Shown here piece by piece: positions 19,534 through 56,740 of a stretch of DNA of 64,000 nucleotides; positions within the stretch are counted from its first letter, which is position 1, and every line of letters begins with the position of its first letter. A program made the position numbers and the translations under genes. The stretch spans positions 1 through 64,000 of IMG/VR virus record IMGVR_UViG_3300032007_000069; one strand, 5' to 3'. The stretch is from a virus (taxonomy: Duplodnaviria > Caudoviricetes). The notes below the pieces were generated by a model. It was given only the letters and a program-made list of their open reading frames with translations. It did no database searches and was not told the DNA's origin.

Positions 19534-20874
19534 ATGAGTAAAAGTTTGATTAACAAGCCCTACGTTCACCAGATGAGTGACAGCAACTCCATCTTCGGGA
19601 ACTTTGGCGGAGCGGTGGCCCAGATGACCATTGATGAGTTCCGCCAGCACCTCAACGACAACGATGAGGAAGTATTGAACAACCTTGCGTTCTACATAGA
19701 CGTGAACAAGGCATCAAGCCTCGGTTCCACCCGTGTAGATGTAGGTGGTAACATGCACATGCGCCAGCTTTGGGAAGACTCTGCTGTAAGTATTCTCATG
19801 GATAAGAATGGCAACTACTGCGAGCTGAACAGGAACGACAACCGCTACACAGCGGAAGGCGACTACCTGTTGCAGAACGACGGGACGATTATCTCGACCT
19901 ATGCGAACTGCGACTTCATGAAGATTATCCCTCAGACCTACGGACGTGTTCAGACGGTGACGGTCGGTGCCACCACCATCGCAAGGCTGTGGCTGTCTCT
20001 CGTTCCGCTGCCTGGCGGTTACATCATCCCTCAGATGGTTGTCGGCAAGTTCAAGGCAAGCGTTGTGTCGAGCGCCCTGCGAAGCCTCCCCGGACTGGTG
20101 ACTGCTGACAGCAACACCATCAATGCGTTCTGGACGAAGGCACAGGCAAGGAGCAAGAACCACGGCTTGGCGAACCTCGACTTCCGTAACCACCTGCTGT
20201 TCCACATGATGGCGAAGTATGCCTATCGTGACTCTCAGAACTGCAAGGGACAGGACAACACACCTATCTGGGGTGTCGGTCTCGACGGAACGGAGAACAG
20301 CGGAGGCTTCGACGGTCAGAAGAACATCAAGACAGGTATCGTCCTCAGTCTCGGTGACTATGACGGAAACGTGGCCACCACGGATGCCAACAGCAACACT
20401 TGCCATTGTGTCAACGTGGCAGGCTTCGAGAACCCTTGGGGTCAGAAGTGGGAAATGGTACAGGGTCTCTGCTCTGTAGGCACTGATGTCTATTGCTGGA
20501 GAAACAACTGGCTACCTACCGGCACTCCTACGGCTGAGTCGTTTGCCCATGTGGAGCATGTCAAGCTGACACGTGCCACAAGTGCCGTCACAGGCATGAA
20601 CATCATCGAGAGCCAGCAGGGACAAGGAGTCTATATGATACCTAAGCAATCCCTCAGCGGTGTAAGCTATGGCGATAACTTCTGGTACGCAGAGGCAGGA
20701 CAGCTGTGGCTCTGGGGCGGTCCCTCGTACCGCGGGTCGTCTTGCGGTCTCGCTTATGCGGCCTCGGACTTCGCTTGGTCGGCCTCGTACGCGTACATCT
20801 CGGCTCGCCTTGCTTACTATGGTTCCCTGCAAAAGGTGTCAGCAAGTCGATTGGCGGAACTCGCGGCTGCCTAA
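19534..20874 (+). CDS. DGR target 1: putative receptor-binding tail protein with a C-terminal C-type-lectin-like fold
   Basis: Carries VR1 near its C-terminus; GFENPWGQKWE motif; last gene of the tail operon before TR. Fold inferred from known DGR targets. Confidence 0.85.
   Translation: MSKSLINKPYVHQMSDSNSIFGNFGGAVAQMTIDEFRQHLNDNDEEVLNNLAFYIDVNKASSLGSTRVDVGGNMHMRQLWEDSAVSILMDKNGNYCELNRNDNRYTAEGDYLLQNDGTIISTYANCDFMKIIPQTYGRVQTVTVGATTIARLWLSLVPLPGGYIIPQMVVGKFKASVVSSALRSLPGLVTADSNTINAFWTKAQARSKNHGLANLDFRNHLLFHMMAKYAYRDSQNCKGQDNTPIWGVGLDGTENSGGFDGQKNIKTGIVLSLGDYDGNVATTDANSNTCHCVNVAGFENPWGQKWEMVQGLCSVGTDVYCWRNNWLPTGTPTAESFAHVEHVKLTRATSAVTGMNIIESQQGQGVYMIPKQSLSGVSYGDNFWYAEAGQLWLWGGPSYRGSSCGLAYAASDFAWSASYAYISARLAYYGSLQKVSASRLAELAAA
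20701..20814 (+). repeat. DGR variable repeat VR1
   Basis: 114 nt, ungapped against TR; I count 20 mismatches, all at TR adenines. Confidence 0.97.
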
Positions 20875-20901
20875 GCAGTCGCGTTGCGCCCGAAAGGGCG
20901 C
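20862..20901 (+). promoter_or_regulatory. Two tandem hairpins downstream of the VR1 IMH (candidate retrohoming cruciform)
   Basis: CGCGGCTGC-CTAA-GCAGTCGCG (stop codon in the loop) and GCGCCC-GAAA-GGGCGC. Confidence 0.7.
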
Positions 20902-21023
20902 TCCGCTTTCCTAAAGTAATAATCAGTAACAAAGAATGAAAGTTTAACAATTCTGCAGGTCAGACGACCGAAGGAACAAATCTCTCAAAAGCCATTACTT
21001 CGATGGTAGGTATAAAGGTATTG

Positions 21024-21137
21024 AAGCTGTGGATCTGGGGCGGTAACTCGAACAACGGGTCGAATTGCGGTCTCGCTTATGCGAACTCGAACAACGCTTG
21101 GTCGAACTCGAACGCGAACATCTCGGCTCGCCTAACT
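21024..21137 (+). ncRNA. DGR template repeat (TR)
   Basis: Ten AAC/AAT codons in the target frame; identical to VR1 and VR2 except at adenines (plus one missing codon in VR2); ends in IMH* ...CGCCTAACT. Confidence 0.97.
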
Positions 21138-21352
21138 ACGTTAGACAAGAAAAACTACAGGGTGTTAGTACTGCGTCATGGGAAAGCATCCGCATACCTT
21201 GAGCCTCGGCAGCGTGCAGTGTATGTATAGCACGTGTTGGTCGGAACAACATTCACCTTGCGCGGAATAGGGTCAGCCCAGCCGCCCGTGGTGTTAGTAA
21301 GCCATAGAAATGGATTTGAACGCTTCACACAGAGACGATAGCAAGCGAAAGA

Positions 21353-22783
21353 ATGAAGAGAGCAGGTCACATATATGAGCAGATGTCCGTCTGGGACAAC
21401 ATCGTGGAGGCTGAGAACATTTCCACGAAGCGCAAGATGCGCAATCCCGGAGTCGTCCGTCATGTCGCCAACAGGTGGCAGAACCTCATCGAGATACAGG
21501 GTATGGTCCTCGACGGCCGTATGCGTACCGATGAGTACATGCACGAGAAGCGGGTGAGCGGACAGGACAAGATGCGAGACATTGCGAAGGTGCATTTCCA
21601 TCCGTCGCATATCGAGCACCAGCTGCTTACGATGGCCGCTGACAGAAGGATAGACAGGACACTCATACGGCACACATACGCAAGCCGTAAGGGGTACGGG
21701 CAGATAGCCTGTGCCTTGCAGATCCGCAAGAACGTCCGCAAGTATCGCGGCACGACTCGGTGGTACGGGCAAGGTGACATCTGCAAGTATTACGAGAACA
21801 TTCCCCACTCCGTGATTAGGGAGAAGATGGTTCGCCTGTTTAAGGACGAGAGATTTGTTGACGCTTTCATAGAACCCTTCGTGCGGTTCGCTGAGGACGG
21901 TATAGGCATACCCCTCGGCATCCGTCCGAGTCAGAGCACAGGCAACCTGGTATTGTCAGACTTCGACCACTTCATGCTCGAAGAGAACAAGGTGGAGGAT
22001 TACGTCCGCTACCTTGACGATTTCTTCTTCACGGGCGAGACGAAGGGAGAGGTTCGGAGGAAGATGAAGAGGGCTGCTAAGTTCCTCAAGGAGCGGTACG
22101 GCTTCGTGCTCCATGAGCCGAAGATTCACCGCATCGAGGAAGGTGTGGATATGATGGGTTTCGTGTTCTACGGTGTCCGTAACGACATGTGGTGGAGGAA
22201 GTCAGACAAGAGACGCTGGCTCCATCACCGCAAGCAGGTCACCAACGGGAAGCGTCTGAGGGAGTTGGACGATGCCGCATGGGGAATGCTCAAATGGGGT
22301 AACAGCCATTGCAAGAAGCTGTGGAGCGTCAAGACCGGCAGACAGATACCTAAGAAGAAAATGGGTGTATCGTACAAGAAAGCAGGCATCCAGCGCACCG
22401 AGCGTCTGGACGCCAATGGTGTTCCATTCATCGACGACCCGAAGATAGGCATGCAGACATTGCTCAAGAAGCCTGTCGAGTGCCTTCGGTGGGTTCCGAA
22501 CGTGAAGACTTCTCAAGGCGAGGGACGTTATGCTGTCCGTGTTAGGTTCATGGGTGACACTTACAAGGTTATCGTGAATGCCATAGACATCAAGATTTTC
22601 TTCGCTGACATGACGAAGAACAAGGTCACTCGGCTGAAGACCGTGTTCATCGACAAGGGTTCAATGCACTATGGTATCGACGAGGAGCAGACCGAGATCC
22701 TGGAGGTCGATGGCCGCAAGGTTATCGAGCAGGATGGCAAGGTCGTCTTTGAAGATACGGGTGCTGAGGTAGAATTTAAGTAA
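21353..22783 (+). CDS. DGR reverse transcriptase with a ~140-aa C-terminal extension
   Basis: GDICKYY, LGIRPSQ (DGR-type GxxxSQ), YVRYLDD and MMGF motifs; adjacent to TR. Confidence 0.95.
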   Translation: MKRAGHIYEQMSVWDNIVEAENISTKRKMRNPGVVRHVANRWQNLIEIQGMVLDGRMRTDEYMHEKRVSGQDKMRDIAKVHFHPSHIEHQLLTMAADRRIDRTLIRHTYASRKGYGQIACALQIRKNVRKYRGTTRWYGQGDICKYYENIPHSVIREKMVRLFKDERFVDAFIEPFVRFAEDGIGIPLGIRPSQSTGNLVLSDFDHFMLEENKVEDYVRYLDDFFFTGETKGEVRRKMKRAAKFLKERYGFVLHEPKIHRIEEGVDMMGFVFYGVRNDMWWRKSDKRRWLHHRKQVTNGKRLRELDDAAWGMLKWGNSHCKKLWSVKTGRQIPKKKMGVSYKKAGIQRTERLDANGVPFIDDPKIGMQTLLKKPVECLRWVPNVKTSQGEGRYAVRVRFMGDTYKVIVNAIDIKIFFADMTKNKVTRLKTVFIDKGSMHYGIDEEQTEILEVDGRKVIEQDGKVVFEDTGAEVEFK

Positions 22784-22803
22784 CATCAAAAATTGTAAAG
22801 AAC

Positions 22804-23205
22804 ATGAATACAGGACATCTACAGAGACGGTTCAGTACTAACCGCCCCGAGGTTTTTGACAAAGAGACTCGCATTGTCTGCCTTGACATTCAAGAGGCTG
22901 TGGAGAACGACGAGAACGGACAGGAGCAGCAAGGCTTCTCCTTCATTCCCGTGGAGATCGACCACCAGATGGACTACGGTCACATCAAGTCTCAGCTGAT
23001 TGAAGCCGGCTTCGCCCAGAAGGATGAGTTCGGACTGCTGATGAACTCCGTGGAGAACATCATCAATGCCGTGAAGAACTCAAGCAGCTGGGCAACGTTC
23101 AAGTCAGCCTTGAACACCGAGGACATCGAGACGTTTGTTTCCTTCTGTGAGTTCCGCCGTGAGTGTGCCAATGCCGCTCATGTGGTAATCAGCAACTATC
23201 AGTAA
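22804..23205 (+). CDS. Hypothetical protein, probably tail-associated
   Basis: Acidic 133-aa ORF between the RT and the giant adhesin. Confidence 0.6.
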   Translation: MNTGHLQRRFSTNRPEVFDKETRIVCLDIQEAVENDENGQEQQGFSFIPVEIDHQMDYGHIKSQLIEAGFAQKDEFGLLMNSVENIINAVKNSSSWATFKSALNTEDIETFVSFCEFRRECANAAHVVISNYQ

Positions 23206-23211
23206 GCGCCT

Positions 23212-26200
23212 ATGAAAATCAAAGGAGCATTTCCTGTCCGATGGGCTGCGCAGGATGGAGCACCTGGTACTGGAGTCACTATCGTGCAAGCCTTGTGCTT
23301 CACGAAGTATGCCTCAAGCAACTCCGGCACCACCCATCCTGCGGACTCGTCGAGCGACTGGAAGACATCAGTACCCACGGTAGCCAATGGCAACTACCTG
23401 TGGACGTGGACGCATGTTCACTATTCGGATGGCACGCACACCGATTCCTATTCCGTGTCGAGGATGGGTATTGACGGTGTAGGTATCATTTCGTCTGTCA
23501 CGAAGTATTGTCAGAAAGCCAACACGAACACGGCACCGGAGAACTTCCCAGAAAGCGACTGGGGAGCGTTCCCTACCAACCTCGTGAACGACTACTGGCT
23601 GTACACTCGGACGATAGTGACGTACAGCAACCAAGACACCGCCATCAGCTATGACGTGGCTCAGATAGGCCAAGGCTCATACTATGCAGGGTGCCAGGAG
23701 TACTATTGCGTGTCTAACGATGGTGACAATGCTCCTTCGGGCTATCCCAACTCCAAGCCTTTCGTGGACGGTGTGGCTACTTATGCCAATGGTGAGGCAT
23801 GTAACGTGACAGGCTCATGGAGCACGTCCAAGCCTACGGCAAACAACTCCACCCCGTACATCTGGAACTTCGAGATCAGCTACGACAGCCGAGGCAACAA
23901 GTATGTCACACGTCCTGTCAGAATAGGCAACTTCGCCAAGGGTATCTCCAGCATCGTCGAGACGTACACCATCAGCTCCCACAATGACGTGGAGAGCATG
24001 TTGGCAGACTTGACGGAGCGTGGCGACTACCAGTGGCAGGACGAGCAGCATGCAGCCGTTCCGACTGACGAGTACCCGTACCAATGGAACAAGACGGTCG
24101 TGAACTATAACAACGGCAGTCCGGACACGTACTACCATATCAGTGCCGTGAAGGGTGCCGACGGCAAAGGCTCGACGTACATTGACCTCGACAATGAGAA
24201 CGATTCCATGCTCTATGACGGAGCAGGGAACCTCATAGGCGGTAACAGCGGATGGGTGACGAGTAACATCAGCCTCTACTCGAATGGTCAGAAGATAACC
24301 TCCAACCTGCCTACATTCTCCATCAAGGAACGCAGCGCGTCCATCACCTCCGCCAATGCGGTTATCAGCGGACAGGTGTTGACCGTGAAAGGCCTCACGG
24401 GAGATAGCGGCTGGGTCGTTGTCAAGTGTACCTACAATAACGTGGAGTACACGGCAAAAATGACCATCAAGAGGCTCGTGGGAGTGGATAAGTATGAGCT
24501 TCAGCTGAACCACAACGCTGTGTCGTACAATACGACGACAGGTGTGCTTTCCAACACCGATATAGCGGTCAATGTGTACAGGACAGCACAAAACGGCTCA
24601 CGCACGAAGGTCACTACCATGGCCACCTATACGCTTACTGCCAAGCTATACCCGAACGGAGCGAGCACGAACTCAAGGAGTATCACCTTCAACTCCAGCG
24701 GTAACGGAACGGCAAGCATCACTGCAGAAGAGGCAGCGGCATGGACGAACTTCGCCATCGTGCTCTTCAAGAACGGCAGTGAGGTTGACCGAGAGACCAT
24801 CCCCATCAACAAGGCACAGAACGGTGGCCAAGGTCCTGGTGCCATCATCCTTGACCTCGACAACGAAAATGACTCGATGCTGTATGACGGGGCGAATAAC
24901 AAGCTGTCGGGTAACGTCACCTCACAGGCAAGGTTGCTCGATGCCGGAGAGGATAAGACCTCTGACGTCACGAACTGGGACTTGGTGGATAAGACCAACG
25001 TCACGGGTTCCATCAACGGCAGCGGACTTGTCACCATCACGGCTATCAGCGCAACGTCCGGCAGTGCCGTGGCTGTCGCCACCTACGGAGGCCAGCAGTA
25101 TAGGGCGAAAATCACCATCAAGAAACTGGTCGGTGTGGATAAGTTCGAGATTGTCTGCTCTCCAAATGCGCTGACGTACAACACGACGAAAGCCACGAAC
25201 CAGCAGCAGGCGGTGAATGTCAAGGTGTACCGCACAGGCCAGAATGGAGCGCGGTCGCTTGTCGCCAGTCTCTCCACCTATGGTCTGAAGTTGAGGTACT
25301 ACTGGCAGACGACACAGGGAGGTACATGGGGAGGCCCTTCGTCCATCACGGACGGAACTGAGGACGGCAAGTACAACAGCGGTGCAGACAAGACCCTGTA
25401 TGCGAACATGTACTATGCCTATCGGTATGAGCTTCTTGACTCGGATAATGTCATTCTCGATGTCGAGACGGTGCCTATCAGCAAGACCTCTGACGGAGAG
25501 GGCAAGGATGCTATCATGCTCGACTTGGATAACGAGAACGATTCCATCCTGTACGATGGTGCCGACAACCCTGTTTCCGATGTCGTGGTCAGCACGGGAA
25601 GCCTCTATAAAGGACCGAACAAGGTGACGAGCGGCATCACATGGAGCATCGCCTCTGTCGAGGGCTGTACGATGATGAACAACGGTGCAGCGACAAGCAG
25701 CAGCTACTCACGCTCCAACTATCCCACGGCAGCATGGATAAGCTCCAATGGTCTCGTGAAGGTCAACGGCTTGTCTGCCTCACAGGGCAAGGTGGTGGTG
25801 AATGCTCACTATGGCGATAACGACTATCAAGCCACCCTCACCTTGAAGAAGCTGAGAGGTGTCGATAAGTATGAGCTGGTTCTGAAGCCTGCGGCATTGA
25901 CGTACAACTCCACCACGGGTTTGGTGAATGGCGCGTCTTCCGCAACCGTGATTGCTGAGATCTGGAGAACGGCACAGAATGGTGACAGGACGCTGGTTGA
26001 CGACTTCAACGGAGCCAATCAGTACGGCTTGTCGATTGTCGTCACTCCGGATGCAGGAAGCCTCTCGGGTTCAACACCTAAGAGCTATGGCCTCGATTTC
26101 GCTGTCAGCAGCTCGCTTGCCAACACGGCATCGAATATCGCTGTGACGCTGAAGAAGGGAACCATGACCTATGACAGCGAGACCATTCCCATCGCCAAGA

Positions 26201-28950
26201 CGACGAATGGTAGCGGTTCTCCTGGTCCTGCAGCCAAGGCCATCTATCGCCTGTCGTTCGCTCAGCCTGCCACTCCTACGGGTGCAAGCCCACAGGGTAG
26301 CGGTGCCCTCGCATGGCATGACGACCCATTCGTGCAGGATGATGTCAAGATAGACCTCCAAGGTGACTGGTTCAGAGACACGGACGGCTTCATGCGTGCC
26401 CCTGCAGTCGGAACGTATCAGTACGTTCATGAGACCCTTTCGTTCGTGACCACAGCGAGCAACCAGAAAGTGTACCTCAGAGTGAAGGCAACGCTCGGCA
26501 GCGGTTCGTACATAAGAATCGGAAACCTCGATGCGACGGTTCCTGCAACCGACTACATGCGTAGCGTGAGCGGAAGCAACCAGGACACTGGAGATATTGA
26601 GGTGACCGTGCCTTACGCAGGTACGCACTTCATCATTGTGAGGTACTATCGAGGCGGAAATACAGACACCTATGCCAAGTTCGCCTGTGGCAAGATGGAC
26701 GTCTGGCAGTCCAACGCTAAGACGTACAATGCAGCAGGAACCATCACGGCATGGAGCACACCTTTCAAGGTAGGCTCTGACAGCGAGTCGGATTCCTCTG
26801 AGACCCATGCGAACATCTTGAAGCAGACAGCTTTCATCGCTAACAAGATGGATGCCTGGCTGACGAAGAACGGCTCAACCTCTGAAGGTACTGGAGGCAG
26901 GAACTCATACGTCGGTGATCCCGATTACGGCTCTTCCATCAAGGAGCTGCTGATGCAGTCTGTATGGGAACCGGACGGTGACCAGCCTCTCAAGGCGAGC
27001 AAGTGGTACACGCTGTCCTTCTGGGCAAAGTCGAAGCCTTACATTCAGATTACGAAGAATGAGACCAGCAATGCCTATGGTTTCGCAAGGGTCAAGCCCA
27101 TCTACTTCGAGGCAGGTGTGACCAACACCATTTGGGTGAACGGCTATGTCTCTTCTGCAGCCAAGAACGCAGGAAAGAGTCTGAGGGTGTTCGTCTATGG
27201 TGACGGAGAGAATGACGGATGGGGCAGCACAATCGCTTCGGTGAAGATTGAAGCCACGTCTGCCACTACTGCCAGCGCCACCTTCACGGTTCCGACGACA
27301 GGATGGTACAACATCATGGCATACGTCTATTTGGAGCCTAACGGAGGCAATAGCCCCGTCGATGGCCAGACAGCCCGTGTGAACTACTATCGTGTCGATA
27401 GGGGCATGAGGATGAGGACGTACCTCTATCCGAACTGCAATAATGGCGAGCAGTCCAGCTACACAGCCATTGACACCTCAGCAGGTCGTATCTTGGACGG
27501 TCAGATGCTCTCTACCTCTCCTACCGACAACGGAGCGGAGTTCAAGCTCACTGAGGACTGGACGAAGCACACGTTGGTCTTCAAGACGAGAAGCTATATC
27601 CCGAACAAGCGCCAGCAGTTCTTGATAAGGATGCACGAGGCTTGCAACGGCATATACGTCTGTATGCCTAAGCTCGAAGAGGGCACACAGGCTACAGGCT
27701 ACGTGACCAATGACAATGACCCCGTGGATCTTGCCATCGAGGAAACCGGATTCCCGAACGACAGAGGTGTATGGGTAGAGTCACCTGCCACCCCTTACCA
27801 ATGGAATGATACGAGCCGCGACTATGTGGCTTCATCAGTCAGCGGTGAGTGGAAGCGCTACTTCGTCAAGAAGAAGGGTATGGTAGTACCTAACGGCACA
27901 GGCCCGACAAGCGGTGGCAACAGCTATTGGGAAGAAGGTTCGAGGATAAGCACTCTTTTGGTGAACACCATCGTAGGTGCGAATGCCGAGATTACCTTCG
28001 CCAAGAGCAACCGCATCCTTGTCACCAATGCAAACGGAACGGTAGCCGCTGGTATGGGCGGTGCTGAGAACGGCAACGACGACTATCCTCTGTGGGTGGG
28101 CGCCACCTATGCGAACAGAGCCAACGCTCCGTTCAAGGTGTCCCTGGCAGGAAAGCTGTATGCCAATGGCGCGGTTATCATGGGTAAGATTACAGGCTCA
28201 GTCAGAAACCCCTTCTGCAGGACTGACAACATACCCACGGACTACAATGGCGACAACCTTGCGCTGGTGTCTTCTTCGTCTGGAACCGTGACCATCGTGA
28301 CGGGAACCTTCAATATGATGATGGGAAGCAACCCAGCCAATATGAGCGGTAGAACCATCAGACTTGTTGCAGGTAAATGGGGCAACACCTATGGAAACGG
28401 AACGGCTACGGTCTATTTCCGTGACAACAGCTCTTACAACACCTACCCGATTTGGGAGAACGGTCACGAGGTTGACCATATCAGCATTTCAAACGAGGTG
28501 GTCGAGCTGCTTGGCTATGGTGACGGCAGTACCTTCTTCGGTTGGATAGTTCTGAACAGGATTGACTTCATGACGAATGCCCAGTATGGTGTCGGTGCGA
28601 AGTGTCTGATGTACGGAAAGATTACAGGTACTCCGAGCGGTTTGACAAGAAACTACTTGAAGGCCTTCGACGCATCGAGCATCACCATATCGAGGACGAA
28701 CACGGGTCTGTACAAGATTACCGTGCCTACATCATGGAAGCTGTCAACGAACCACCTGCTTGTGCTGGCCACTCCTGTAGGCTATATCTATAACGGAAGT
28801 AATATGCTGTTCTGCTCGGTCGAGAGCATAGAGACTGACAGCTCCGGATATGTCAGCGCTTTCACCCTGCAGTGTTCTGACGACCAGTCAAGGAACGACG
28901 GTTGTATCAGCTTCGCGGTGTTTAACATGAACGATTGGACGAACTATTAG
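23212..28950 (+). CDS. Giant tail fibre/adhesin (1912 aa)
   Basis: N-terminal antireceptor-type repeats (GNYLWTWTHVHYSDG), three tandem 223-aa repeats, CBM-like segments (YTLSFWAK). Confidence 0.75.
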   Translation: MKIKGAFPVRWAAQDGAPGTGVTIVQALCFTKYASSNSGTTHPADSSSDWKTSVPTVANGNYLWTWTHVHYSDGTHTDSYSVSRMGIDGVGIISSVTKYCQKANTNTAPENFPESDWGAFPTNLVNDYWLYTRTIVTYSNQDTAISYDVAQIGQGSYYAGCQEYYCVSNDGDNAPSGYPNSKPFVDGVATYANGEACNVTGSWSTSKPTANNSTPYIWNFEISYDSRGNKYVTRPVRIGNFAKGISSIVETYTISSHNDVESMLADLTERGDYQWQDEQHAAVPTDEYPYQWNKTVVNYNNGSPDTYYHISAVKGADGKGSTYIDLDNENDSMLYDGAGNLIGGNSGWVTSNISLYSNGQKITSNLPTFSIKERSASITSANAVISGQVLTVKGLTGDSGWVVVKCTYNNVEYTAKMTIKRLVGVDKYELQLNHNAVSYNTTTGVLSNTDIAVNVYRTAQNGSRTKVTTMATYTLTAKLYPNGASTNSRSITFNSSGNGTASITAEEAAAWTNFAIVLFKNGSEVDRETIPINKAQNGGQGPGAIILDLDNENDSMLYDGANNKLSGNVTSQARLLDAGEDKTSDVTNWDLVDKTNVTGSINGSGLVTITAISATSGSAVAVATYGGQQYRAKITIKKLVGVDKFEIVCSPNALTYNTTKATNQQQAVNVKVYRTGQNGARSLVASLSTYGLKLRYYWQTTQGGTWGGPSSITDGTEDGKYNSGADKTLYANMYYAYRYELLDSDNVILDVETVPISKTSDGEGKDAIMLDLDNENDSILYDGADNPVSDVVVSTGSLYKGPNKVTSGITWSIASVEGCTMMNNGAATSSSYSRSNYPTAAWISSNGLVKVNGLSASQGKVVVNAHYGDNDYQATLTLKKLRGVDKYELVLKPAALTYNSTTGLVNGASSATVIAEIWRTAQNGDRTLVDDFNGANQYGLSIVVTPDAGSLSGSTPKSYGLDFAVSSSLANTASNIAVTLKKGTMTYDSETIPIAKTTNGSGSPGPAAKAIYRLSFAQPATPTGASPQGSGALAWHDDPFVQDDVKIDLQGDWFRDTDGFMRAPAVGTYQYVHETLSFVTTASNQKVYLRVKATLGSGSYIRIGNLDATVPATDYMRSVSGSNQDTGDIEVTVPYAGTHFIIVRYYRGGNTDTYAKFACGKMDVWQSNAKTYNAAGTITAWSTPFKVGSDSESDSSETHANILKQTAFIANKMDAWLTKNGSTSEGTGGRNSYVGDPDYGSSIKELLMQSVWEPDGDQPLKASKWYTLSFWAKSKPYIQITKNETSNAYGFARVKPIYFEAGVTNTIWVNGYVSSAAKNAGKSLRVFVYGDGENDGWGSTIASVKIEATSATTASATFTVPTTGWYNIMAYVYLEPNGGNSPVDGQTARVNYYRVDRGMRMRTYLYPNCNNGEQSSYTAIDTSAGRILDGQMLSTSPTDNGAEFKLTEDWTKHTLVFKTRSYIPNKRQQFLIRMHEACNGIYVCMPKLEEGTQATGYVTNDNDPVDLAIEETGFPNDRGVWVESPATPYQWNDTSRDYVASSVSGEWKRYFVKKKGMVVPNGTGPTSGGNSYWEEGSRISTLLVNTIVGANAEITFAKSNRILVTNANGTVAAGMGGAENGNDDYPLWVGATYANRANAPFKVSLAGKLYANGAVIMGKITGSVRNPFCRTDNIPTDYNGDNLALVSSSSGTVTIVTGTFNMMMGSNPANMSGRTIRLVAGKWGNTYGNGTATVYFRDNSSYNTYPIWENGHEVDHISISNEVVELLGYGDGSTFFGWIVLNRIDFMTNAQYGVGAKCLMYGKITGTPSGLTRNYLKAFDASSITISRTNTGLYKITVPTSWKLSTNHLLVLATPVGYIYNGSNMLFCSVESIETDSSGYVSAFTLQCSDDQSRNDGCISFAVFNMNDWTNY
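24181..26220 (+). repeat. Three tandem 223-aa (669-nt) protein repeats
   Basis: xDLDNENDS(M/I)LYDGA starts at 24181, 24850 and 25519; GVDK(Y/F)E and ET(I/V)PI motifs recur in each unit. Confidence 0.9.
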
Positions 28951-31805: not shown

Positions 31806-31894
31806 TTAGGTGTCTTGAAGCAGTTTCGTTAAAAGTGAGCAAAAGTTAAATCTTTGTGTATCAGCGATTTATAGAGAAAATAATTTGAAAAACG

Positions 31895-31926
31895 TTTTGT
31901 CAAATGAAAAAAAATGGCTATCTTTG
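31895..31926 (+). promoter_or_regulatory. Class A phage promoter
   Basis: TTTTGTCAAATG...TATCTTTG with the same spacing. Confidence 0.75.
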
Positions 31927-31965
31927 CATTGATATAAGAAACAAAACCATCTAAATGAAAGAGCA

Positions 31966-34213: not shown

Positions 34214-34248
34214 ACTATCTGTAGCAGCAGCGATTTCGTGCGATTTCG

Positions 34249-34280
34249 TTTGCTCAAATGCTATTTTTTGGCTAACTTTA
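34249..34280 (+). promoter_or_regulatory. Class A phage promoter
   Basis: TTTGCTCAAATG...TAACTTTA. Confidence 0.65.
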
Positions 34281-34325
34281 CAGCGTTATAAGAAACAAGA
34301 TTCATTCATCTAAACGCTAAGAGCA

Positions 34326-39833: not shown

Positions 39834-39946
39834 AATGTTAAAAATTGTTGCAAAATAGCATTTTCTACGGATATTCTTAGGATATTCCGAAAATTATGGC
39901 TACCTTTGCACTATCATTTAATAAAAACAATGCAAAATTAGCAAAA
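39834..39946. promoter_or_regulatory. Lysis-lysogeny switch with divergent promoters and GGATATTC repeats
   Basis: Plus-strand TACCTTTG at 39901-39908; minus-strand TAATTTTG at 39933-39940; GGATATTC occurs twice. Confidence 0.65.
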
Positions 39947-49341: not shown

Positions 49342-49386
49342 CGAAAGTTAAACTATATGTAGCACAGGCGATTATAGGATTTTCCG

Positions 49387-49418
49387 TTTGGTCAAATGCA
49401 AAAAATTGGCTATCTTTA
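49387..49418 (+). promoter_or_regulatory. Class A phage promoter
   Basis: TTTGGTCAAATG...TATCTTTA. Confidence 0.7.
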
Positions 49419-49451
49419 CAGCATATAAGAAACATTCATAATTCAAGAGCA

Positions 49452-50310: not shown

Positions 50311-50676
50311 ATGGAAAAAGAAATGACGCTCAATCAGTATCAGCGGTGTGCACTCGAAACGGCAGTGTACCCGAAAGAGTTCAAGACCATCTATCCGGCT
50401 CTCGGTTTGACTGGAGAAGCTGGAGAGGTCTCAGACAAAGTGAAGAAAGTCCTGCGTGACTCGGAGGTGATTATCCGTGACGGTGCAGGCTCCATCGTTC
50501 TGCCAGATCAGAAGCGAGAGGAGTTGGCCAAGGAGGTCGGTGACGTCCTTTGGTATGTGGCAACCCTCGCACACGACATCGGCTATTCGCTGGAAGAGAT
50601 AGCAGTGATGAACTACGAGAAGTTGAAGTCTCGCCAGCAGCGTGACCAGCTTCATGGAAGTGGTGATAATCGTTGA
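50311..50676 (+). CDS. MazG-like NTP pyrophosphohydrolase
   Basis: GLTGEAGEV...KEVGDVLWY (EXXE/EXXD metal motifs). Confidence 0.88.
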
Positions 50677-50696: not shown

Positions 50697-51305
50697 ATGA
50701 AAGAAATTGTAGTAGCAGTCCCGGACGGCAAAAGAGCTGAATGGGTGAATGGTGTGCTCACACTCGTTGACGACGTTGTGGAAGCCACGAAAGACGAGCG
50801 TCCTGTAATGGAACGCATCAAGACGTTTGAAGATGCCTGCGATGAAGTTGGCAGACTTGCCGAAAGAGGTAACGAAGGCCTTGCCACACTACTGGCAGAC
50901 TATGAGTCCAATGCTGACAACATCAAGACGAAGGGTACGCTGGCATACATGAAGCTGTGCATCATAGCGGCAGCTCTCAACGAAGGTTGGGAACCTCAGT
51001 TCACTACTGACGAATACCGCTGGTACCCTTGGTTCACATTATGGACGAAAGAGGAACTGACAGACAAGACCGAAGAGTGGAAGCAGGAGCATAAGCTGTG
51101 GTGGGGCGGTTCCTCGCTCCTCGGGTCGCTTTGCGGTCTCGCTTATGCGCGCTCGGCCCCCGCTTGGTCGCACTCGGCCGCGTGCATCTCGGCTCGCCTT
51201 GCTGTCAAGTCAGAAGAGTTGGCAGACTACTTCGGAAAGCAGTTCATTGAGATTTGGGCAGACTATGTTGGCCCGTTTAACCTAAAGGAAGAAAGTGATG
51301 ATTGA
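50697..51305 (+). CDS. DGR target 2: small protein carrying VR2
   Basis: Contains VR2; AAGAGCA-ATG start; no signal peptide or TM; outside the structural operon. Confidence 0.9.
   Translation: MKEIVVAVPDGKRAEWVNGVLTLVDDVVEATKDERPVMERIKTFEDACDEVGRLAERGNEGLATLLADYESNADNIKTKGTLAYMKLCIIAAALNEGWEPQFTTDEYRWYPWFTLWTKEELTDKTEEWKQEHKLWWGGSSLLGSLCGLAYARSAPAWSHSAACISARLAVKSEELADYFGKQFIEIWADYVGPFNLKEESDD
51093..51203 (+). repeat. DGR variable repeat VR2 (remote)
   Basis: 51102-51203 aligns ungapped to TR 21036-21137 with 21 mismatches, all at TR adenines. The upstream AAGCTGTGG also matches, with the ATC codon missing. Confidence 0.95.
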
Positions 51306-52470
51306 TAAGCTGAAAGTTTATGCACGGACGATAGAAGATGAAGCCGTGCAGCAGATTGACAAGATGAACGGCTGTGATGCGTACAAGGATTGCCTGGTGC
51401 GCATCATGCCGGACTGCCATGCAGGTATCGGTTGCACGATAGGTACGGTCATTTACCTGCAGGACAGGATAGTTCCCAATACGGTAGGTGTTGACATCGG
51501 CTGTGGTATGCTGGTCACCTGTCTCGGCAAGCAGGAGGTGGACTTGGAACGTCTCGATGAGGTAATCAATGAGAAGATACCTTCGGGCTTCAATATCCAT
51601 GACAAGCAGCGTCGAGCCTTCCACCTGCTCGACAAGATGTACTGCAAGGAAGTCATTGACGAAGACATGGCTCTGCGAAGCATCGGCTCCCTCGGTGGTG
51701 GCAACCACTTCATCGAATTGGATGAGGATGGTAACGGCAACAAGTACCTTGTCATTCACAGCGGAAGCCGAAACCTCGGCAAGCGAGTGTGTGACTACTG
51801 GCAGAAGAAAGCTGTTGACTACTGCAAGAAGCAGCAGTGCGATGAGCAGGAGATTATCGCACGTCTGAAAGCAGAAGGTCGTGAGCGTGAGATTTCAGCA
51901 GCCATAGCGGAAGCCAAGTCAAAGGCTGGTAAGATTGACAAGGAGCTGGCATACGTCGAAGGTACGGATGCCTCTCACTACCTGTTCGACATGATGATCT
52001 GCCAGAGCTATGCAAGCGAGAACCGCCACACCATGGCCGACATCATCTGCCGTGAAATGGGATTGAAGGTGGAGCGTCAGTTCCAGACCATCCACAATTA
52101 CATCGACCTGCAGCACAAAATCCTGCGTAAGGGAGCAGTAAGCGCCCTCAGAGGCGAGGAACTTCTGATACCCATCAACATGCGTGATGGCTCGCTCCTC
52201 TGTGTCGGCAAGGGCAACCTTGACTGGCTCTACTCAGCGCCTCACGGTGCCGGACGTCTGATGTCTCGCAAGAAAGCCAAGGAAACGCTCGACATGGCAG
52301 ACTTCGAGAAGTCGATGGAGGGTGTCTATACCACCTCGGTTTGCGAGAGCACGATAGATGAGGCTCCGATGGCGTACAAGCCCATGAAGGAGATCCTGGA
52401 GTGCATCGAGCCGACGGTGGAAGTGGTAGCGGTAATCAAGCCCTTGTACAATTTCAAGGCGAAGCAGTAA
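51298..52470 (+). CDS. rtcB: RtcB family RNA ligase
   Basis: MPDCH, GVDIGCG, GGGNHF, HSGS, HN and APHGAGR motifs. Confidence 0.93.
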   Translation: MIDKLKVYARTIEDEAVQQIDKMNGCDAYKDCLVRIMPDCHAGIGCTIGTVIYLQDRIVPNTVGVDIGCGMLVTCLGKQEVDLERLDEVINEKIPSGFNIHDKQRRAFHLLDKMYCKEVIDEDMALRSIGSLGGGNHFIELDEDGNGNKYLVIHSGSRNLGKRVCDYWQKKAVDYCKKQQCDEQEIIARLKAEGREREISAAIAEAKSKAGKIDKELAYVEGTDASHYLFDMMICQSYASENRHTMADIICREMGLKVERQFQTIHNYIDLQHKILRKGAVSALRGEELLIPINMRDGSLLCVGKGNLDWLYSAPHGAGRLMSRKKAKETLDMADFEKSMEGVYTTSVCESTIDEAPMAYKPMKEILECIEPTVEVVAVIKPLYNFKAKQ

Positions 52471-56628: not shown

Positions 56629-56673
56629 ATCTTTGATTTCAAGCGTTTTGTGCTGAAAATAATTGCGTTTCTG

Positions 56674-56705
56674 TTTGGTCAAATGAAAAAAAATGGCTAA
56701 CTTTA
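56674..56705 (+). promoter_or_regulatory. Class A phage promoter
   Basis: TTTGGTCAAATG...TAACTTTA. Confidence 0.7.
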
Positions 56706-56740
56706 CAGCAAATAAAAGAAACATAAAAAATCATAGAGCA

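Follow-up and report, generated by a model that had tools for sequence, protein, structure and literature searches.

Is the open reading frame at 50697..51305 (+ strand) a second, remote target of a DGR whose template lies some 30 kb away beside a tail gene and, if so, what might its product do? The window analysed here is positions 1 to 64,000 (64,000 nt) of the IMG/VR virus record IMGVR_UViG_3300032007_000069, which is 74,327 bp long with a completeness of 99% (CheckV). Phage DGRs are usually treated as host-range devices that vary tail tips. In the founding DGR, that of BPP-1 (mtd-avd-TR-brt), the template repeat (TR) is transferred to a VR in the C-terminal part of the target by adenine-specific mutagenic retrohoming, with a distinction between IMH and IMH*. 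That system serves a single adjacent target, a trimeric tail-fibre protein with a C-type lectin fold, and it also includes an Avd gene and, behind the VR, a GC-rich hairpin.

A preliminary description of the locus had implied that a remote second target would be novel. The arrangement was, however, published in 2021 for Quimbyvirus, whose DGR targets two proteins, one of them in the structural module (Benler et al. 2021, Microbiome 9:78, PMC8008677), in 2025 for human-gut temperate phages (Nature 2025, PMC12629997), and also for the Roseburia phage Shimadzu (Cornuault et al., 10.1101/575076). A remote second DGR target in the family to which this ORF belongs is already known, and the present genome is a further example, from a gut-type phage.

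One TR, two VRs and one reverse transcriptase

A direct-repeat search of the window returned a three-member family of about 109 nt, at 20702-20810, 21025-21133 and 51091-51199, and a repeat search of the whole record gave just three TR-like copies, namely TR, VR1 and VR2. The TR (21024..21137, + strand) is non-coding, rich in AAY (AAC/AAT) and located between target 1 and the reverse transcriptase (RT) gene. VR1 (20702..20814, +) forms the C-terminus of target 1, a 446-aa tail-module protein (19534..20874, +) that belongs to phrog_5302 ('tail protein'), and VR2 lies within the 202-aa product of ORF 50697-51305, here called target 2. The core of VR2 (51102..51203, +) aligns without gaps to TR 21036-21137 over 102 nt, with 21 mismatches that all fall at TR adenines. 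There are 24 adenines in this TR segment, and random placement of the mismatches would put 21 out of 21 at A with P = 6e-19. Across the same 102 nt VR1 has 18 mismatches to the TR, again all at TR adenines.

The AAY codons of the TR are read in VR2 as TCC, CTC, CTC, CTT, CGC, GCC, CCC, CAC, GCC and TGC, and all ten are unlike their counterparts in VR1. Replacement of the AAY adenines reaches 19 of 20 in VR2 and 16 of 20 in VR1. On realignment every number given in the preliminary description for the match between TR and VR2 was borne out, a recount of the AAY adenines agreed with it, and its proposal that VR2 was mutagenised independently of VR1 stands, given that no AAY codon is common to the two.

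The description had also placed a common IMH end in the two VRs, and this we found as well. The IMH-like 3' end of VR2, GGCTCGCCTTGCT (51191..51203, +), is identical in VR1 (20802-20814) and unlike the corresponding GGCTCGCCTAACT of the TR (21125-21137), with CCTTGCT in both VRs versus CCTAACT in the TR, a difference of the IMH versus IMH* kind as judged from the sequence. Two of the 21 mismatches of VR2 (TR 21134-21135, AA to TG) are common to VR1 and represent the fixed IMH/IMH* difference, not new mutagenesis.

At the other end, the homology of VR2 to the TR continues upstream for a further 9 nt (AAGCTGTGG, 51093-51101, +, equivalent to TR 21024-21032), with a 3-nt gap before the core. The ungapped match stops at 102 nt because of a 3-nt deletion peculiar to the VR2 of this genome, which at 51101/51102 is without the codon matching TR ATC (21033-21035); this codon is kept in 13 out of 13 close relatives (as I, V, L, F or C). 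It is ATC, TGC or TTC in near-identical relatives and, since it varies among them, its adenine is a mutagenised site too. A 2-residue insertion within the VR was seen in one relative (P0391), and this insertion together with the lost codon indicates that small in-frame indels occur at or in VR2.

The RT is encoded by a single 476-aa ORF (21353..22783, +) that matches PF00078 (E 2.5e-8, above the cut-off) and phrog_1423 (E 7e-50). Its best named relatives are the LoVEphage RTs, at 31% identity, and about 140 of its residues lie beyond the Pfam RT domain. The likeness to BPP-1 extends to the A-site differences between TR and VR, the IMH/IMH* distinction and the position of the VR in the C-terminal part of the target. 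However, there are several differences, the first being that the two targets are 30 kb apart. No avd-sized ORF was found between target 1 and the RT, as none of the ORFs listed among target 1, TR and RT fits (window 20875-23205), and the acidic 133-aa ORF that follows the RT (22804-23205) has no relevant NCBIfam match. Likewise, no significant hairpin was detected after either VR: the 3' flanks contain short imperfect inverted repeats only, with folding energies no better than those of shuffles (z -0.3 for the VR1 flank and +0.8 for that of VR2). The DGR cassette is followed by a gene for a 1912-aa protein (23212-28950) in which a unit of about 220 residues occurs three times; at the DNA level these are repeat families D8 and D12, spaced 651-726 nt apart. 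The product is presumably either a tail fibre or a large protein of the distal tail.

With one RT, one TR and two A-only VRs that have a common 3' end, ORF 50697-51305 is a second, remote target of the phage's single DGR. By analogy with BPP-1 it is very probable that VR2 receives sequence by retrohoming: the TR RNA would be reverse-transcribed with adenine-specific errors, and the cDNA would, independently of VR1, be directed to VR2 by the IMH end and replace it.

VR2 is diversified in the population

VR2 had been described as hypervariable, and in a survey of homologues the diversity is indeed restricted to the VR, at A sites. VR2 is hence not invariant across relatives, one of the outcomes that the description had named as counting against it. 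We gauged this diversity by comparison with publicly available contigs of the species. Between contig L005 and the window gene, the 498 nt outside the VR contain 8 differences and the 114 nt of the VR contain 23, of which 19 are at TR adenines; the same pattern was seen with contigs L006 and L007. Across 14 same-species proteins (90-94% identity) the scaffold is near-invariant while all 14 VRs are distinct, and the variation within them is found at the AAY-coded positions and the ATC-coded residue only. The dN/dS ratio is 0.07-0.30 for the scaffold and far above 1 for the VR. Moreover, dS within the VR is about 0 even against relatives with a scaffold dS of 1.4-1.5, which fits repeated overwriting from a conserved TR. 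We conclude that VR2 is diversified in the population and that its scaffold is under purifying selection; that VR2 is active in this very genome we infer from its relatives. Over 56 alleles of VR1 and 41 of VR2, residue usage at the diversified sites is the same, in the order Y > S > N > D > A > G; it does not separate the two and gives no hint that selection acts on them differently, and a bias of the RT may be the cause.

Target 2 belongs to a widespread family with no recognisable lectin fold in its predicted scaffold

The ORF at 50697-51305, which comes from the ORF list, is real, because full-length homologues begin at the same Met. VR2 occupies residues ~133-169 of its product and is followed by a conserved C-terminal helix. 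Target 2 matches phrog_11581 ('unknown function') with E 2.2e-46, residues 23-191 aligning to positions 30-191 of the 200 in the profile. A word-indexed search gave 4236 matches, and an exhaustive search of clusters at 50% identity gave 1289 with E<=1e-3, of which 510 had E<=1e-10; phrog_11581 is a widespread family of ~200-aa proteins of Bacteroidales phages. In alignments the scaffold carries the conserved motifs RP-x-ERIKTFEDA, KL-x-IIAAALNEGW-x-P-x-F, E-x-RWYPWF and, at the C-terminus, ELA-x-Y-x-GKQF-x-x-IWAD, and the hypervariable block of the homologues follows the pattern GGxSxxGSxCGLAxAxSxxAWSxSxAxxSARLA.

Targets 1 and 2 resemble each other only in the 39-43 residues specified by the TR, both by BLASTP and by profile-profile comparison with hhalign, in agreement with the previous statement that the two proteins are unlike outside the VR. 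One encoded segment therefore sits in two proteins that are otherwise undetectably related, and that the two targets have no more than the 39 TR-specified residues in common is new here.

An AlphaFold2 model of target 2 made with 103 diverse homologues had a pLDDT of 83.8 and a pTM of 0.76, superseding a run with 36 close homologues that reached a pLDDT of 59. In the model a beta-hairpin at the N-terminus is followed by three helices (44-95) and by short helices at 118-131, and the C-terminal helix covers 173-191; the VR part is of low confidence (pLDDT 50-73). Foldseek gave no match to the model in the PDB at E<=0.001, and with VIA-align against 48,161 chains the best hits (Z 4.6) were to designed helical proteins and were uninformative. 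Searches with target 2 in BFVD and in the ESM Atlas returned only uncharacterised phage proteins and unnamed viral clusters, respectively. There was no match for target 2 in Pfam, NCBIfam or PADLOC, nor in a sequence profile search of the PDB. Among the 103 family members, none matched a lectin, FGE or DUF1566 profile, or indeed any Pfam profile, even at E<=1. The scaffold as modelled may be a strongly reduced lectin fold or some other scaffold. The Quimbyvirus targets were both named C-type lectin proteins by Benler et al. (PMC8008677); that target 2, as predicted, has no recognisable lectin fold is new here and a further difference from BPP-1.

Several members of the family, including P0122, P0126, P0142 and P0160 (330-362 aa), are extended at the N-terminus by about 170 residues or carry an insertion behind the N-terminal hairpin, and no informative domain was found in these extended proteins. 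One member, P0139, gives a sub-threshold match to Tad2-like (Thoeris anti-defence) proteins (E 0.0011), which was not relied on. Neither target 2 nor its neighbours matched any of the defence and anti-defence families.

Target 2 is encoded among replication and nucleotide-metabolism genes

A Bacteroidota-type promoter repeat (TTTG ... TAnnTTTA; repeat family D1; 49369..49435, +) heads an operon that runs from a 279-aa ORF through MazG, target 2 in third place and RtcB to an HNH/Lar-like 456-aa ORF and more, and no terminator-like site was found on the + strand from this promoter at 49.4 kb to 56.6 kb. The upstream neighbour is a MazG-like pyrophosphatase (50311..50676, +) and the downstream one an RtcB tRNA ligase (51295..52470, +), the start of which overlaps the stop of target 2. 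We considered whether MazG, target 2 and RtcB form a conserved unit and rejected this, as the adjacency of MazG and target 2 is kept in close relatives only and other genes replace RtcB in relative L003. Genes for a helicase, a DUF4406 protein, NinG, and DnaD-like and DnaC-like loaders are found upstream.

Two arguments for an intracellular role that the preliminary description had drawn from the gene itself proved weak. The first was promoter class. The window contains seven copies of a 67-nt promoter-like repeat of the Bacteroidota sigma-A type (TTTG ... TAnnTTTG/A), at 169-235, 342-408, 31877-31943, 34231-34297, 39859-39925, 49369-49435 and 56656-56722, and because the same type (169-235, 342-408) precedes the structural-gene block, promoter class is uninformative on timing. 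Several of the genes downstream of these repeats begin with AAGAGCAATG. The second was the missing signal peptide. By direct reading the N-terminus of target 2 has no hydrophobic stretch; virion proteins are also without signal peptides, so this is uninformative on location.

The placement of the family in other phages is more telling, and in at least three unrelated phage groups the homologues are in every case found amid genes for replication, recombination or DNA modification, and in none within the structural block. Neighbours include helicase, NinG, NinB, DnaC/DnaD-like loaders, RecT, SbcC, D12 methyltransferases, ASCH and MazG; distant members adjoin either RecT, SbcC and an MBL hydrolase or D12 methylases, NinG, DUF4406, ASCH and RNase T. 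At 80 IMG/VR loci taken with 10-kb flanks, the replication proteins of this phage have relatives in at most 23, and its structural proteins in at most 2.

From this gene context we lean towards target 2 being a soluble, non-virion binding protein, made from a replication/nucleotide-metabolism operon, that would bind a variable intracellular ligand in phage-host or phage-phage conflict. In such a protein a TR-specified surface of 34-39 residues would be grafted onto a small scaffold of beta-hairpin plus helices. A cytoplasmic binder is plausible on the same grounds, and the overall explanation, in which a remote DGR target acts as a non-virion binder, is the one that we favour with moderate confidence. 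Small early-region proteins of a conserved, widespread family, rewritten from the template that also serves the tail protein, point to an additional use of hypermutation, one that probably takes place within the infected cell.

The position of the gene may also be compatible with a virion role, and target 2 might be a virion-associated accessory adhesin, such as a small protein for receptor binding or decoration, that uses its N-terminal part to dock onto the tail or head and provides a second diversifiable binding site. The TR-specified binding segment is the same as that of the tail protein, with the same residue usage at diversified sites, and the variable N-terminal extensions and insertions of some members could be docking adaptors; the homologue in Bacteroides phage Versailles is, moreover, annotated as a 'tail protein'. 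However, that annotation most likely reflects the match of its VR to DGR-targeted tail families, as the phrog_5302 matches of family members are limited to the VR, and outside the VR there is no similarity to structural phage proteins. Given, in addition, the conserved placement described above, in at least three unrelated phage groups amid genes for replication, recombination and modification and here in an operon with MazG and RtcB, we consider an adhesin unlikely.

phrog_11581 is a recurrent second target of phage DGRs

Among the closest known systems are those of Quimbyvirus and LoVEphage. Their second target ('ORF 80/84') is distal and non-structural, with methyltransferases and a tRNA ligase nearby; it was proposed to act in phage-host conflict, and the abstract of that study flags the arrangement as without precedent (PMC8008677). 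The likeness to the present phage is close: a single TR serves a tail-module target plus a phrog_11581 target, and the latter is a homologous protein, distal from the RT cassette, that differs from its own TR at A only. In the LoVEphage-species phage BI-TP1 the homologue, gp84, has 45% identity over 76% of the query and a VR with 12 mismatches to its own TR; its gene is flanked by those for a TIGR02757 protein, ASCH and methyltransferases, with the tRNA ligase 5 kb off. LoVEphage differs in that its RT is in three overlapping frames (as published) as against a single 476-aa ORF here, in its TR sequence and, by the capsid protein, in its backbone, and the neighbours here are MazG and RtcB. The major capsid protein of our phage has no LoVEphage match, its best named relative being that of Cellulophaga phage Nekkels (31%), and the two-target arrangement therefore recurs on unrelated phage backbones. 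We conclude that phrog_11581 is a recurrent 'second target' of phage DGRs, Quimbyvirus and LoVEphage included, and the present genome is a clean further case, on a backbone unrelated to LoVEphage.

A tblastn search with target 2 against phage records returned Bacteroides and Phocaeicola phages only. The Versailles homologue mentioned above has 29.5% identity and is encoded between NinB and a replisome organiser, and its VR has 14 mismatches to its own TR, which lies beside an RT; our literature search on phage Versailles found nothing on its DGR. Among human-gut temperate phages, four prophage species have been reported to carry a second VR that is distal and in the vicinity of counter-defence genes (PMC12629997). 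These 'double VR' prophages are mentioned there briefly, without family definition, structure or function, and can be likened to the present case by arrangement. In phage Shimadzu, too, one TR serves two VRs, the first (VR1) within a tail gene and the second (VR2) within orf43/44, of unknown function, and reads show that both are actively mutated (10.1101/575076). However, its host is a Firmicute, and it showed no detectable sequence similarity to target 2 in the above tblastn search.

Family members with VRs occur in phages without RT and TR

Of 40 IMG/VR records that are at least 45 kb long and carry a family member, PF00078 matches were found in 26, and tblastn identified an RT in one more. 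Ten of the 29 near-complete genomes with a family member have neither an RT nor a TR-like repeat, and three of these ten have direct terminal repeats. These DGR-less carriers are G021, G025, G028, G033, G038 and G040 (loci L048, L057, L063, L075, L089 and L091) together with G014, G017, G024 and G029; their VRs, written by a DGR and with the VR-type 3' end intact, match TRs found in sister phages. In six of these carriers the scaffolds are near-identical, the VRs are all different and the VR-type 3' end is kept, and the variation in the VR is found exactly at the adenines of the TR of a sister phage, G031. What is new here is that VR2 genes written by a DGR occur as orphans in complete phage genomes without RT or TR. 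The genome of G021 has 98.5-99% identity to the RT flank of G031 and G030 up to a point where the match ends abruptly, as though the DGR/tail module had been swapped.

A single loss of the DGR would freeze one VR, and the orphan pattern therefore needs many losses, recombination or rewriting in trans. There could have been many independent losses of the DGR; phages with and without a DGR could have recombined in the early region; or a co-resident DGR could be rewriting the orphan VRs in trans, which is conceivable because the gene keeps a competent IMH end in phages without RT and TR. The function of target 2 may also be independent of ongoing diversification, since family members persist in phages that have no DGR.

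The orphans bear on a further explanation, that VR2 is a bystander overwritten whenever the DGR fires, its diversity being tolerated and not selected. AAY templates cannot yield stop codons, so that overwriting would be cheap, and 10 of 29 near-complete carriers keep the gene without RT or TR, both of which speak for a bystander. So does the finding in Shimadzu that the VR2 alleles include no dominant variant, which its authors read as weak selection (10.1101/575076). However, a TR-matching VR with a VR-type 3' end is kept across very different TRs and backbones, which would be hard to account for without selection for target status, and the variable positions are gathered in a single uninterrupted stretch of a small protein that is well conserved. 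We therefore regard the bystander explanation as improbable. An origin of VR2 from VR1 or from a relative's VR, through duplication or gene conversion and without retrohoming, would account for the CCTTGCT end that VR1 and VR2 have in common and the TR has not, but it is effectively refuted by the difference between VR1 and VR2 at every AAY codon, by the identity of every non-A position to the TR and by the finding that near-identical genomes differ at VR2 almost only at TR-A positions.

Returning to target 2 as a non-virion binder, the survey adds to the published examples a very large family, a predicted scaffold without a recognisable lectin domain and DGR-written copies in DGR-less phages, and it makes phrog_11581 a well-defined family for experimental study. 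A more far-reaching form of the idea, which we put forward as a speculation with a rather small chance of being right, is that phrog_11581 is a phage-borne, DGR-programmable intracellular 'antibody' in which a minimal non-lectin scaffold displays the TR-encoded loop and so neutralises or senses variable defence proteins of the host or proteins of rival phages, with the orphan copies being rewritten in trans. If this were true, the repertoire of binders would be common to a prophage community.
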